64,000 nucleotides of DNA from Patescibacteria group bacterium (GTDB lineage Bacteria > Patescibacteriota > Kazan-3B-28 > UBA10110), in NCBI GenBank assembly GCA_016936175.1, contig JAFGPN010000004.1, positions 5,726 to 69,725 of the forward strand, read 5' to 3'. Made by a program: the position numbers and the translations under genes. Below are positions 22,935-27,488 of the stretch, in pieces. The notes beneath the pieces are model-generated. The model saw nothing but the letters and a program-made list of their open reading frames with translations, did no database searches and was not told where the DNA came from. Numbering within the stretch: the stretch's first letter is position 1; each line of letters starts with the position of its first letter.

Positions 22935-24458
22935 TTACATTATATCAAACACGTTCCCGACTGCGGCTACCGCTCCCGATTCTCGGACTACTCGATACTC
23001 TACCGCCATATCGGACACACCCAGTTCAGCCAAACCAGCCAAGACCACCTGATGGTTAGTGGATTTGCTCATCACTTGCTTAAGAAAATCACTGGGTAGT
23101 TCAACCACTAATTTTCCGTTGTCAATTACTGCGGAACTACTTTTTAGTAGCGCGCCGGTAGCCGGATTAGTTACCTCTAGTCGGTCACACAACTGTGGCC
23201 AGAATTCGGCAATGTTTTTTGTGCTTGATTTTGGCGGATTGGCCGTTACAATAGTTGACTTAGCGGTAATCGAAGCCGGACGAGACGGTGCTGACTTAGC
23301 GGTTACTTCAGCCGGGGTCGTTGCACATTTAAGTACTGCCATCTCCAAAGCCAGCTGTGGCAAGTGTGATAGTTTGTAGGTGTTGACCGACTCCACCAAT
23401 CGCTGTAGCCAATTAACCAGCTGGTTAACACTTACTGTGCTAACCTGTTCTGTCATAACCTTTTTATCGTCGGCCGAGCGATCGATTAAACTAATGTTTC
23501 CCAATTTAACCATCAGTAGCTCCCTTAGATGATTCATCCATTGTTTGGCTAATTGATTTAAATCGTAGCCCTTAAAATAGACATCACTAATTAAATCGAT
23601 ACCAACAACTACTTGCCCGTCAATCACTGCCTGAGTTAGGTGCTGAATCACACTGCTATCTACTACACCTAACAGTTTAGCCAACTCGCCCCGATCAATC
23701 TTGCTTTCACCAAAACCTGCCGCCTGGTCCAGCATACTAAGAGCATCCCGCAAGCTTCCTTCCGCATTTTCGGTAATCAGTTCGATCCCCGCCTGGGTAA
23801 TCTCAATCCCCTCCTGTTGGGTCACTTTTTTTAACTGCTCGGTTACTTCGACCCGAGACAGATAGTGAAAATCAAAATACTGGCACCGAGAGATTACCGT
23901 CGGCAACAGTTTGTGTACTTCAGTGGTAGCCAACACAAAGATTACATGAGCCGGTGGTTCTTCTAAGGTTTTGAGCAGGGCGTTAAATGCGTTTTTAGAG
24001 AGCATGTGGACCTCGTCGATGATATATACCTTGTATCTGCCCAGCGAAGGCACCAGGTTAACCTTTTCGATTAGATCGCGAACATCATCAACCGATGTAT
24101 GTGAAGCGGCATCAATCTCAATTAGATCGACAAAATTGCCTCGGTCAAATGCGATACAGTTAGCGCATTTACCACATGGTTCACCCGGCACACTCTTTTT
24201 AATATTATCGCCGCCCTCCGTAGCTCCACTATGCAGTGGAGCGAAGGATGGGTTGTTTGCTTCGCAGTTAACAGCTTTGGCCAACAATCGGGCCAACGAT
24301 GTCTTGCCGGTGCCACGAGGACCTGCAAATAAATAAGCGTGAGCAATCCGATCGTTAACTACCGCGTTAATCACTGTCTGCTTAATGTGCAGTTGACCGA
24401 CAAAATCCGCAAATTTTTGCGGACGCCACTTTCTATATAAAGCCCCACCCTTTGGCAT
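22935..24458 (-). CDS. dnaX: DNA polymerase III subunit gamma/tau
   Basis: 507 aa with GPRGTGKTSLARLLAK, a zinc module (CGKCANC) and IIDEVHMLS. Confidence 0.92.
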   Translation of the reverse strand: MPKGGALYRKWRPQKFADFVGQLHIKQTVINAVVNDRIAHAYLFAGPRGTGKTSLARLLAKAVNCEANNPSFAPLHSGATEGGDNIKKSVPGEPCGKCANCIAFDRGNFVDLIEIDAASHTSVDDVRDLIEKVNLVPSLGRYKVYIIDEVHMLSKNAFNALLKTLEEPPAHVIFVLATTEVHKLLPTVISRCQYFDFHYLSRVEVTEQLKKVTQQEGIEITQAGIELITENAEGSLRDALSMLDQAAGFGESKIDRGELAKLLGVVDSSVIQHLTQAVIDGQVVVGIDLISDVYFKGYDLNQLAKQWMNHLRELLMVKLGNISLIDRSADDKKVMTEQVSTVSVNQLVNWLQRLVESVNTYKLSHLPQLALEMAVLKCATTPAEVTAKSAPSRPASITAKSTIVTANPPKSSTKNIAEFWPQLCDRLEVTNPATGALLKSSSAVIDNGKLVVELPSDFLKQVMSKSTNHQVVLAGLAELGVSDMAVEYRVVRESGAVAAVGNVFDIM

Positions 24459-24480
24459 AATTTCTCCTAAGTCGCACCTA

Positions 24481-25482
24481 TCATAATACCACAGACTCCC
24501 CGGCCAACCACCTCAACCGTTGAGTAATTTTTCGCCCGCTCACATGTGCCAGATACCCCAAATATGATGGCATCGCTTTGACTACAGTGCCCAAATTGCC
24601 CACCGTCATCTCCCGCGAAATCCTCCCACATATTCGTTTGACTGTTTTCCTCCTCGGCAGGTTGTAGTGGGGCAGAGCGTTGTATCCTATAAAATCTATA
24701 CCCCAAGAGAGTTTGCGTAAGATGAGCTTGTCGGGGTGGAGCTGCAACTTCAGCTCGGATTTCAGAAAATGAGCTATCTCCACAAAATATCCCATCAACT
24801 CACCGGGACCGTCTGCTAACAATGTAAAATCATCGGCATAACGGAGATAGCGCTTAGCTCGAAGCCGATGCTTAGCAAACTTGTCCAACGGATCGAGATA
24901 AACATTGGCGAATAACTGGGATGTCAGATTCCCCAACGGCATCCCTGTGCCACCCGTCTTGTCATTCCCGCTTAGGCGGGAATCCAGGCAACCGAAGCTA
25001 CCAATGATATTTTCCAATAGCCCCAATAATCGCTCATCAGCAATACGGGTTTGCAACAATTCCATCAGCACCTTGTGGTCTACACTATCGAAAAACTTAC
25101 GAATGTCTAACTCCAACGCCCAACAGGGGCTGGTATAGTTTTTACTCACCTTCCGAGCCATCTCTGCCAGTCGGAAAAATCCTTTGTGCGTTCCCTTGTT
25201 CTTCCGGCAAGAATAGCTGTCAAATATAAAGGTTTTATCAAAAGCCGAATGCAGGATACGATAGATGGCATGGTGAAGCAGTCGGTCATGGACAGACGCC
25301 TTACTGATCAGTCGGGGCTTGGGGTCGGAGATGCGGAACTGTTGGTAACCACCATGGCGATACGTACCATCTACCAGCTCTTCGTGCAGGGCAAATATGT
25401 TATCTTCAAGATGGAGTTCAAACGCTTGGACATCCGACTTACTCCGTTTCCCTTTCAGAAACTCCGTCCAGGCTAAGAACAA
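24481..25482 (-). CDS. DGR-type reverse transcriptase
   Basis: 333 aa with YADDF (motif 5) and LGNLTSQ, which fits the [ILV]GxxxSQ signature that separates DGR RTs from group II intron and retron RTs. It uses a TTG start. The RT-like sequence EIISLENL continues in frame upstream to a stop at about 25541, with no canonical start in between. Confidence 0.85.
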   Translation of the reverse strand: MFLAWTEFLKGKRSKSDVQAFELHLEDNIFALHEELVDGTYRHGGYQQFRISDPKPRLISKASVHDRLLHHAIYRILHSAFDKTFIFDSYSCRKNKGTHKGFFRLAEMARKVSKNYTSPCWALELDIRKFFDSVDHKVLMELLQTRIADERLLGLLENIIGSFGCLDSRLSGNDKTGGTGMPLGNLTSQLFANVYLDPLDKFAKHRLRAKRYLRYADDFTLLADGPGELMGYFVEIAHFLKSELKLQLHPDKLILRKLSWGIDFIGYNALPHYNLPRRKTVKRICGRISREMTVGNLGTVVKAMPSYLGYLAHVSGRKITQRLRWLAGESVVL

Positions 25483-25518
25483 ATTCTCTAACGAAATAAT
25501 CTCTGCAAAGACACCATC

Positions 25519-25897
25519 ATGGAAAATAACTTTCCCATTAAGCCCCCCCTACGGATTTGGAGAAATCCCGATTGTATTGAGATTGTATGAGTTCTACCGG
25601 CTTTTGCATGATGCCATTCAAAAATTTCCCAAGTCAGAGAAATATTCTCTCGGTCAGACGCTTCAGAATACGACTCTCGCCCTGCTACGATCGATTATAA
25701 TTGCTACCCGATCAGACAAAATGACTCGAAGAGATTATTTGGTTGCCGGTAATGCCGACCTAGATGTTTTAAAACTGCTTATCCGCCTAGCGGTCAACAC
25801 TCAATCGCTGGATCAGAAAAAATATCTTCTACTGGAAACCCAGCTCCAAGAAATTGGTCGGATGCTAGGCGGATGGCTCCGCAGTTTAGAAAATTAG
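25519..25897 (+). CDS. Avd-like four-helix-bundle accessory protein, frame interrupted at a C7 tract
   Basis: ...EIPIVLRLYEFYRLLHDAIQKFPKSEKYSLGQTLQNTTLALLRSI...LETQLQEIGRMLGGWLRSLEN matches the 23S-IVS/Avd family pattern. ATG 25519 is one frame off, and loss of one C in 25543-25549 would fuse the two frames. The alternative in-frame TTG at 25577 would clip helix 1. Confidence 0.6.
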
Positions 25898-25899
25898 CT

Positions 25900-26029
25900 A
25901 CTCCGAGGAAGGCCACCACCGTACCATAGTTGTCGTTCGGATTGTCAGCATTCCTGTTGTCGAACTTCAGCTGATCGTCGTTGAAATAGAAGTACACAGA
26001 GTTCGTCCAGTTGCCATCGGCGTTCCAGT
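25900..26029 (-). repeat. DGR template repeat (TR)
   Basis: 130 nt, collinear with the VR at a constant +448 offset. Read on the minus strand it encodes the Asn-rich WNADGNWTNSVYFYFNDDQLKFDNRNADNPNDNYGTVVAFLGV. Confidence 0.85.
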
Positions 26030-26260
26030 GTTGCCTCTTCACTATCCAGGTCACTGCGAGCTAAAGGTGATAGCTTCGCTGTATTTTATGTGGGGAGTTA
26101 CCCTCAATCTTATGAGAGGCAAGGAGTGTCTAATTCTCAAGTCGGCCCTCTCGGGTGGAATAAATTCTACCAGACTCCGGCCGGGTGCTTGTGACACAAT
26201 TTCGGCGGACTAAATCCGTAAACTTAGCCACACTGCCTACTTTCACATCTATTTTACAAT

Positions 26261-26291
26261 AAAAAATGCGGCGGGTAGAAACACCCGCCGC
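26261..26291 (-). terminator. intrinsic terminator after the DGR target gene
   Basis: The hairpin gcggcgggt-agaaac-acccgccgc is followed by a U6 run on the minus strand. Confidence 0.75.
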
Positions 26292-26343
26292 CTTGAAAGC
26301 GAACGCAAAGTTCGAAAATTGCAAAGGACCAATCCCCAAGTTG

Positions 26344-27246
26344 CTACACTCCGAGGAAGGCCACCACCGTACCACAGTCGTCGTCCGGATAGCCAGCACG
26401 CCTGTCGTCGAACACCAGCTGACCGTCGTCGAAAGCGAAGTACACAGAGTCCGTCCAGTCGCCATCGGCGCTCCAGTCCCACTCATCTCCCGAGCAATCA
26501 ACGAAGAGTTGCCCATAAGCGGTAAGCCGGTCCGGCATGGTCAGTAGCAGGCAAGCCACTTGAGCGGTGATCAGCGGAAGCTGATTATTGTTCAGCGCTT
26601 CGAAGCGAGCATTGCGGGGACTGAAGCCAGCGTAGAGATCGCCGAAATTGAAGGACAGCACTAGCACATCACCGGGGGTCTCGGCCTCCAGCTTCTTTAG
26701 CTGCTCCCGGACATCTTCCATAATGCGGATGTGCTGCTCGTCCATCTGACCCGCTCGGTAGTTATAGAAAGAGCGGCTCGCGGCAATCAGTTCGAACAGT
26801 TTCTCACACATCGCGCCATAGCCCTTGCCATAAGGATCAGTGATATTCCAGAGCTCAGCCAAATAGGCAAGCTTAGGAATTACCGCCAATCCGTCAGCCA
26901 ACTTCTGTGCCTTGACCTTGGCTACTAACGCATCAACCTGCGACAGATCGATCCGCTTAAATAGCTTGATCAAGCGAGCCTTTTGCTCCTCGATAGTGGC
27001 CGATTTCCACCCCTTAGGGTAGAACCAGGCCCGCTTGACCCGTTCATCAATGTACGGGTTGGTCGGAATCAGTGCCTCGAACAGGGCGACGAACTTCTGC
27101 TTGAAGTCACTTACCCAGTTCGTGTCACTGATCATCCTCTGGACCATAGCAAAACCAAATCGGTTCAGTACGGTCTTCAAGGCATCAATTACAAACGAGC
27201 CGATCTGCCGGGCTTGCCCAACAGTCATCAAAGTTGACCTCGACAT
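26344..27246 (-). CDS. DGR target (variable) protein
   Basis: 300 aa from ATG 27246, with RBS aaggag 7 nt upstream. The C-terminal 43 aa are VR-encoded. I see no signal peptide or TM helix, and the N-terminal ~250 aa are unrecognised. Confidence 0.8.
   Translation of the reverse strand: MSRSTLMTVGQARQIGSFVIDALKTVLNRFGFAMVQRMISDTNWVSDFKQKFVALFEALIPTNPYIDERVKRAWFYPKGWKSATIEEQKARLIKLFKRIDLSQVDALVAKVKAQKLADGLAVIPKLAYLAELWNITDPYGKGYGAMCEKLFELIAASRSFYNYRAGQMDEQHIRIMEDVREQLKKLEAETPGDVLVLSFNFGDLYAGFSPRNARFEALNNNQLPLITAQVACLLLTMPDRLTAYGQLFVDCSGDEWDWSADGDWTDSVYFAFDDGQLVFDDRRAGYPDDDCGTVVAFLGV
26348..26477 (-). repeat. DGR variable repeat (VR), 3' end of the target gene
   Basis: 17 mismatches to the TR. 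16 of them fall where the TR has A on the coding strand. The 3'-most 27 nt are identical and GC-rich. Confidence 0.85.
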
Positions 27247-27488
27247 CTGAAGTCTCCTTTTTAACCAACCTCTGCGAGGCATTCCGGTTTACCGGAACTT
27301 ACGGGTTAGACCGCCTCCTCAGCGTTGGGTTAGCACAGCCGCTAACGCTACCAATGTAGCACAAAACTCGCTCCCAGCCAAGATTTTCCCGCTCCCAAAC
27401 CTGATTTTATTCTACCCTCTTCTCTATCCCGCCCTCCAGATTAGAGCGCTTTTACGCCATTGGAGCCCGAGTGTCCCTGTCTTTCTTA

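Follow-up and report, generated by a model that had tools for sequence, protein, structure and literature searches.

In the diversity-generating retroelement (DGR) of Bordetella phage BPP-1, the accessory gene avd is co-oriented and lies upstream of the template repeat (TR), and the RNA downstream of the TR is a non-coding spacer. To our knowledge that element has no homopolymer switch, and the control that keeps DGR mutagenesis rare in cells is largely not understood. A survey by Wu et al. (2018) defined an architecture B3, 'TR-(avd)-RT', and assigned to it 90% of the DGRs of Candidate Phyla Radiation (CPR) bacteria (PMC5758913). The element described here is a DGR of this type, carried on a 64,000-nt stretch of a Patescibacteria genome (the window) and compared with related DGR loci, its relatives. 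Its avd and reverse transcriptase (RT) genes appear to run in opposite directions from overlapping 5' ends, and the overlap contains a run of seven C, or seven G on the RT strand. On balance, and with caution, we favour the reading that this run is a phase-variable switch, in which reversible replication slippage would gate Avd and RT together and of which the window would hold a copy in the OFF state.

An earlier, sequence-only reading of this DNA had placed the C7 run at 25543-25549, with an ATG at 25519 that is one frame off from Avd, and both features are in the sequence; the ATG opens an open reading frame (ORF) of 23 codons (MENNFPIKPPLRIWRNPDCIEIV, then a stop). The minus-strand stop that it saw closing the RT frame (TAG 25551-25549), just upstream of GVFAEIISLENL, was likewise recovered by translation. 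It had also proposed that the loss of one C would give MENNFPIKPPYGFGEIPIV..., which is supported by two relatives (L086 and L087): both have the identical leader MENNFPIK, and an interrupted tract (CCCTCCCCC) carries it in frame into Avd. By position the run takes up codons 9-11 of avd. The leader is kept in L002, L004, L005 and L021 with synonymous changes only, and in L002 the Avd frame opens just one nucleotide before the tract. In two out-of-frame relatives (L052 and L072), the 20 codons from the tract to helix 1 of Avd encode a QLKLPGQFQN motif that is conserved in intact homologues, and no start codon is present among them. Because of the leader fusion, the missing post-tract starts, the synonymous codons and the frame opening in L002, ribosomes must enter the Avd frame inside the tract; as far as these sequence comparisons go, the tract is within the avd coding sequence and not upstream of it. 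The only other assembly of the window genome (L001) also has C7, and with 100% identity over 6,049 nt it gives no independent confirmation of that length. Elsewhere in the window, the only C/G runs of at least 7 nt are a C7 (51448-51454) and a C8 (58589-58596), which lie within uninterrupted minus-strand ORFs of 398 aa and 713 aa and could be used as internal controls for homopolymer read noise.

That the plus-strand frame encodes Avd is confirmed by family cut-offs and by its predicted four-helix fold. The frame from 25550 to 25894 scores 84 bits against NCBIfam NF033474 DivGenRetAVD (cut-off 80) and 74.7 bits against Pfam bAvd PF22296 (cut-off 40; E=1e-20), and its AlphaFold2 (AF2) model is a four-helix bundle with a mean confidence (pLDDT) of 93.5, which Foldseek matches to Bordetella bAvd (4dwl; TM 0.83-0.91, rmsd 1.4 A) and to the DGR ribonucleoprotein 8ube. 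In the C7 state no intact avd ORF that begins ahead of helix 1 was found; canonical starts in the Avd frame are limited to the non-conserved ATG 25397 and to TTG 25577 within helix 1. ATG 25519 is thus not the only ATG, as had been claimed, for ATG 25397 opens an ORF of 166 aa. It was rejected as the avd start: relatives carry a TAA right before the tract in that frame.

The TTG deserves a closer look, as it belongs to a view in which the tract is irrelevant to expression: Avd would start from TTG 25577 and RT from TTG 25482 or ATT 25527, and the ATG leaders would be vestigial or short upstream ORFs. The sequence-only reading had stated that a start at the TTG would remove most of helix 1, and this does not hold. 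The model places helix 1 at P10-I26 and the TTG at L13, which means that 3 of the 17 helix residues are lost and 14 are kept along with the whole bundle; the argument from the fold is weak because the fold is nearly intact from this codon. The TTG also has a GGAG 14 nt upstream, the Avd family profiles start only 4 positions before it, and gene callers have picked such starts (P0002, P0121). The better argument against it comes from the codons for GFGEIPIV just upstream, which among the window, L002, L005 and L021 differ solely at third positions that are synonymous in the Avd frame. A start at TTG 25577 or 25583 was rejected on this basis, as these codons and a nearly invariant Pro would go, and relatives without a tract start avd 6-20 codons upstream of that Pro. 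The RT side of the same view has in its favour that the ATT, with GGGAAA upstream, is conserved in close relatives. Against it, the RT motif IISLENL upstream of TTG 25482 evolves synonymously, and intact relatives use a distal ATG. We hold tract-independent starts to be the most improbable of the readings considered.

It is at the RT gene that the earlier reading stopped short: it saw the stop at the G7 run, which is there, and overlooked both an RT start further upstream and the joint gating that would follow from it. In most relatives the RT start lies about 10 codons ahead of an IIS.ENL motif, where the subclade of the window has no canonical start. In intact relatives (such as P0126, P0131, P0140, P0142, P0149 and P0153), RT starts 26-39 codons upstream and reads through the tract, with an N-terminus of the form M..VE(I/L).Q..N.D...GG(G). 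In the window, ATG 25609-25607 opens an RT leader which in the G7 state reads MQKPVELIQSQYNRDFSKSVGGA and then stops; with one G fewer (G6), it aligns to the N-termini of the intact relatives without gaps and Met to Met. An antisense ATG before the first antisense stop is present in 16 of the 20 lineages without a proximal RT start, as against 7 of the 48 with one (p=5e-7). The annotated start at TTG 25482 leaves out the conserved GVFAEIISLENL, and upstream of this TTG most differences of the window from L002 are synonymous when read in the RT frame.

With these starts, the avd gene (plus strand, ATG 25519) and the RT gene (minus strand, ATG 25609) form a 5'-to-5' antisense overlap of about 90 nt which is codon-aligned and spans the tract. 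Each start codon reads as a His codon (CAT) on the opposite strand, the avd ATG in the RT motif FHDG and the RT ATG in the Avd motif LLHD. Since RT would also start upstream, at ATG 25609, and cross the same tract, the two genes would be gated together, and because the overlap is codon-aligned, any length that is in frame for one is in frame for the other. With C6 or C9, a full-length Avd (MENNFPIKPPYGFGEIPIV...) and a full-length RT (MQKPVELIQSQYNRDFSKSVGGLNGKVIFHDGVF...) are predicted; with C7, both leaders end after 23 codons. The avd start region itself (25519-25537) is nearly palindromic, also in relatives (ATGGAAAATAACTTTCCCAT), which mirrors the ATG/CAT arrangement of the overlapping starts; it gives a small hairpin on either strand and could be a candidate for an operator-like site.

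A poly-C tract of 6-15 nt, with a modal length of 9-10, is found at the same spot in about 25 related DGR loci, arranged as ATG, 2-14 codons, the C-run, 5-20 codons and then the (D/E)IPI(I/V) of helix 1. It is C10 in L004 (Kazan RBG_13_50_9), L002 (a JGI contig), L021 and L085; AA plus C11, which is length-equivalent to C10, in L005; C9 in L088/L089 and in L007; C6, with avd in frame, in L003; and C8-C15 in about 14 more distant loci. Across 682 kb of related loci, 20 of the 24 C/G runs of at least 8 nt sit at the avd 5' leader, and when all classes of simple-sequence repeat (SSR) are counted, 35 fall within RT/avd and 3 outside (p=9e-24), a density 56-fold higher in RT/avd. The over-represented repeat in a 5' coding region by which contingency loci are recognized is therefore present here. 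Sorted by lineage, the tract is in frame in 8, would need the loss of one nucleotide in about 9 and the gain of one in about 4, which fits the random expectation of one third. An avd without an in-frame start occurs in 14 of 22 tract lineages, compared with 3 of 58 lineages that lack a tract (p=1e-7). Pattern scans for further Kazan-type junctions brought up a single metagenome contig, identical to L004, and no viral contigs.

These counts bear directly on the simplest objection, that C7 is a homopolymer sequencing or assembly error and that the true length is C6 with both genes intact. One C fewer does restore both frames exactly, and homopolymers are error-prone. A 7-mer is, however, short enough for reliable Illumina calling, and the NCBI contig of this metagenome-assembled genome (MAG) and a Logan contig of SRR13394437 both have C7, though they probably come from the same reads. 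The out-of-frame call needs no special pleading because, among about 15 independent relatives, most tracts are out of frame. We consider such an error very unlikely.

Repeats are also seen elsewhere in this family, and about half of these cassettes carry them within RT or avd. In eleven loci (L012, L013, L020, L026, L035, L039, L040, L054, L058, L065 and L081), (GA)n/(CT)n repeats of 16-70 nt lie inside RT, within the motif 3-4 linker and at a distance of about 525-655 nt upstream from the avd start; L064 has a G10 in this linker in place of (GA)n (L064:4442-4451). The two halves of RT are in different frames in 7 of the 11 (GA)n loci and in L064, the repeat lengths in short-read assemblies being possibly unreliable. 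Poly-C also occurs in the C-terminal tail of Avd adjoining the TR (..WLKSTKLAPPPLNR) in L023:5335-5344 (C10) and L028:5347-5355 (C9), and (CA)8-10 at the avd/RT junction in L018:3779 and L034:4982. The window has in its motif 3-4 linker a perfect palindrome of 8 bp around a 4-nt loop (24964-24983; ATTCCCGC-TTAG-GCGGGAAT), at the spot where relatives have (GA)n, poly-G or long low-complexity insertions. Within the window the palindrome core has its only exact match there, and 58639-58654 matches with a mismatch.

Length differences between near-identical sequences, giving ON and OFF frames, were found in a Berkelbacteria lineage. Its RT cluster holds proteins that are about 99% identical and have three different N-termini. 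At the DNA level, five samples show C9 (L090 and L091), C10 (L092 and L093) and C11 (L094), or G9, G10 and G11 on the RT strand, in matching flanks from which only L094 departs, by 2 single-nucleotide differences in the downstream 60 nt. With C9, Avd is in frame (MEQNSPVKPPPTQFSPIEVPLVHK...) and so is RT from the distal ATG; C10 and C11 are out of frame. Such length variation is the signature of a contingency locus. The same type of N-terminal frame switching is seen in a second cluster (P0191, P0251 and P0254). The L090, L091 and L093 contigs end 60-100 nt from the tract, and these assembly breaks might come from tract heterogeneity or from the TR/VR repeat, VR being the variable repeat of the target gene.

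In the phase-variable reading, the tract would be a hypermutable SSR whose length would be changed reversibly by replication slippage. One tract length would set the reading frame of Avd and RT at once, and DGR mutagenesis would be on only in a subpopulation. A low level of constitutive expression may leak through as well, if RNA polymerase or the ribosome slips on CCC-C/GGG-G. A slip-strand on/off control was among the options raised by the sequence-only reading, and it is supported by the conserved position of the tract, its lengths from C6 to C15, its random phase and the C9/C10/C11 polymorphism. A wider proposal is that in a large clade of CPR DGRs hypermutation itself would be phase-variable, with one tract serving as a heritable, reversible switch within a broader pattern of RT/avd repeats; this we put forward tentatively, as quite possible but short of probable.

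Judging from their sequences, the out-of-phase elements are not dead. Between the window and L002/L005, avd has a ratio of nonsynonymous to synonymous divergence (dN/dS) of 0.09-0.17 at a dS of about 1, and the avd and RT genes of the window have no stops or frameshifts apart from the tract. In those OFF loci where a TR/VR pair could be detected, the two repeats differ by 13-24 mismatches, and 94-100% of these are at TR adenines. L002 and L004, both C10, have near-identical avd genes (dS 0.012), and since their TRs are identical while their VRs differ at 24 adenine sites, homing took place after the two had split.

One may nevertheless take the window for a locked-off or decaying element, in which the tract has shrunk (from C10 plus GGAC to C7 plus TAC) and avd and RT, permanently frameshifted, are becoming pseudogenes. 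C7 is indeed shorter than in all close relatives, the junction is 4 nt different from the C10GGAC form, and both leaders are truncated; L003, with its 5'-truncated RT, shows that cassettes do decay. Because C7 falls short of the C9-C12 typical of relatives, the window tract would be less mutable, and for this genome a locked-off copy is plausible. On the other hand, the low dN/dS and the lack of any other lesion in avd or RT speak against decay, and so do the 17 adenine-specific VR-TR differences, the intact target ORF and the fact that a single step from C7 to C6 restores both genes. We regard a locked-off or decaying element as decidedly unlikely. What real decay looks like in this DGR family can be seen at L003:1140-1570, where avd is in frame with C6, about 190 N-terminal codons of RT are gone and the avd ATG abuts RT motif 4-5.

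Another rival needs no change in the DNA at all. In programmed recoding, RNA polymerase slippage or a ribosomal +1 slip would yield constitutively low Avd and RT; an out-of-frame tract would then be normal, with tRNA-Pro slipping on CCC-C and tRNA-Gly on GGG-G. CCC-C is a +1 frameshift-prone site, and a +1 slip on CCC CCC C ahead of UAC would rescue the avd of the window, as a like slip on GGG GGG G would rescue its RT. The five lineages of the closest subclade, moreover, are all out of frame and yet under purifying selection and recently active. Recoding fits less well with the wider set of lineages, one third of which are in frame while the others need shifts in opposite directions (-1 nt or +1 nt), so that no single direction is conserved, even if the out-of-frame state is conserved within the closest subclade. 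No stimulatory RNA structure came out of folding both strands of four lineages (z-scores -1.15 to +1.7), and there was no Rfam match. Bacterial RNA polymerase slips far better on A/T than on G/C runs, and the C9/C10/C11 variation in a relative is seen at the DNA level. The strict form of the idea, a programmed frameshift in one direction, was rejected in view of the occurrence of both directions and of in-frame states, with no RNA structure that stands out. Recoding in general we think unlikely. Assembly error and tract-independent starts are less likely than either recoding or decay.

Several points weigh against the phase-variable reading and should be put together. In the closest subclade, defined by the leader MENN(F/L)P(I/T)K, none of the pure tracts seen is in frame (four lineages, namely L002/L004, L021, L085 and the L005 equivalent, have C10, and one, L088, has C9), and no ON consensus was found there; this pattern fits a mostly-OFF switch and equally fits recoding at the RNA level. 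When an assembly is built from short or nanopore reads, as for L005, homopolymer lengths of at least 10 are open to miscalling. C7 is at the low end of the tract lengths, and switching in the window genome may be slow or lost. The window lineage is represented by one population, so that length variation is seen in relatives and not in this lineage. The conserved ATT (25527) preceded by GGGAAA is a possible tract-independent RT start. Finally, both switching in the window genome and the RT start at ATG 25609 are what we infer.

The features of the cassette are collected in Table 1. The window is a CPR-type DGR of architecture B3, running from the target gene with its VR through the spacer, TR and reversed avd to RT. 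When the TR and VR are aligned by hand in the minus-strand reading, 17 differences are at TR adenines and there is one T-to-G; by blastn count, 16 of 17 are at adenines. The RT beside the TR belongs to the DGR clade (Pfam RVT_1, with LGNLTSQ and YADD in the translation) and is 100% identical to an NCBI protein of a Patescibacteria MAG (P0121), a 333-aa version annotated from the TTG. Its nearest homologues all adjoin Avd, TR and VR in CPR genomes, the nearest relatives being Kazan, Berkelbacteria and Saccharibacteria MAGs. The target gene is an intact ORF without a Pfam or NCBIfam match.

Table 1. Coordinates of the DGR cassette in the window
Feature	Position	Strand	Basis and remarks
Target gene with C-terminal VR	26344..27282	-	ORF list and repeat pair
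VR	26348-26477	-	Repeat search
Spacer VR-TR, 318 nt	26030..26347	-	Terminator scan, conservation, RNAalifold
TR	25900..26029	-	130-nt repeat, 87% identical to VR
Avd body	25550..25897	+	Profiles, AF2, Foldseek; YGFGEIPIV...GRMLGGWLRSLEN, stop 25895-25897
Poly-C (C7) / poly-G (G7) tract	25543..25549	both	Common to avd and, as predicted, RT; C6 or C9 are the in-frame lengths
avd leader ORF, C7 state	25519..25590	+	ATG 25519, MENNFPIK, tract, 13 out-of-frame codons, TGA 25588-25590
RT leader ORF, G7 state	25538..25609	-	ATG 25609-25607, MQKPVELIQSQYNRDFSKSVGG, then A and a stop at 25540-25538
DGR reverse transcriptase body	24481..25548	-	Frame opens after TAG 25551-25549; RVT_1 2e-22

The coordinates and strands that the sequence-only reading gave for avd (plus strand, with its stop 25895-25897) and for the TR, target and RT (minus strand) hold. 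Its suspicion that such a layout may be rare is wrong for this lineage: RT is immediately upstream of avd, on the opposite strand, in 78 of the 80 related loci. An avd on the opposite strand is no peculiarity, given these relatives and the published CPR architecture. The inference that a TR transcript continuing towards RT would pass antisense through avd applies to all B3 elements; a terminator scan found no terminator-like site on the minus strand between TR and RT, and a strong terminator (26291-26268, with a T run) 3' of the target gene. An Rfam search of 24300-27400 gave nothing meaningful, its best hit being a sub-threshold rpsL_pseudo (E=0.12). A promoter scan found no sigma-70-like sites close to the avd/RT overlap, a type of scan that is uninformative for CPR bacteria.

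The spacer between VR and TR is among the best-conserved segments of the cassette, with 70-94% identity to L002 per 50-nt bin, compared with about 60-80% in most coding stretches. Beyond the terminator hairpin it holds a -10-like TGTAAAAT (26258-26251) and hairpins at 26229-26208 and 26174-26151, and an RNAalifold analysis of 12 relatives found compensatory changes in 15 of 17 pairs; it has no Rfam family match. From these signals, the spacer is probably the promoter together with a structured 5' part of the TR RNA. On the other side of the TR, in B3 elements, the RNA directly 3' of it (25750-25899, minus strand) runs antisense to avd where that gene is most conserved (EIGRMLGGWL). The Bordetella DGR has, directly downstream of its TR, a spacer that priming requires, and by analogy the 25750-25899 region may be under a dual protein and RNA constraint.

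If the phase-variable reading is true, a tract that flips RT and Avd together would be a simple stochastic control of a DGR. It would give bacterial bet-hedging a further layer, that of a 'mutator of a mutator', confine a costly targeted mutagenesis to a subpopulation, and could explain alternating diversification and stasis in metagenomes. Tract length can be read directly in metagenomes, and therefore DGR activity would be predictable from sequence and could be correlated with VR diversity. There is also a consequence for annotation: CPR Avd and RT genes are routinely mis-started or truncated at tracts, as in the 333-aa RT and in Avd calls of 97-104 aa, and a survey that accepts intact ORFs only will count too few of these DGRs or misclassify them. 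The searchable literature contained no report that connects the avd or RT of a DGR with homopolymers, SSRs or phase variation, a search that lay outside the main CPR-DGR paper, Paul et al. 2017 (Nat Microbiol). The B3 layout and SSR phase variation are each known separately; the combination is one that we have not found reported.

How, then, does this locus compare with the systems already described? With the B3 elements of CPR bacteria (PMC5758913) it shares gene order, orientation, the Avd-family protein, the adenine-specific mismatches and the CPR host (Kazan/Patescibacteria); that survey gives gene order only, and the 5'-5' coding overlap of avd and RT and the repeat tract are features of the window that are not mentioned in it. 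With the BPP-1 DGR (mtd-avd-TR-brt; 4dwl, 8ube), it has in common the Avd fold (TM 0.83-0.91), the class of RT with LGNLTSQ and YADD, and the adenine signature, while in the window the RNA downstream of the TR would be antisense avd. The phasevarion methyltransferases (PMC5909438) are alike in concept, in that a repeat tract switches an enzyme with many downstream phenotypes; there is no homology, and the effect of the DGR is the hypermutation of one target gene and not methylation. Closest in the form of the tract are the poly-G/C contingency loci of Campylobacter, Neisseria, Bordetella and Helicobacter and of phages T2/T4 (PMC12633550), which have a G/C homopolymer near the coding 5' end, a modal length of 9-10, ON and OFF states among close relatives, and repeats strongly enriched in particular genes. 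The DGR tract departs from them in that a single tract would gate two divergent, overlapping genes in an uncultivated CPR bacterium, with switching suggested by sequence comparison, and in that the genes it would gate encode a mutagenesis machine, and not a function in restriction-modification or at the cell surface.

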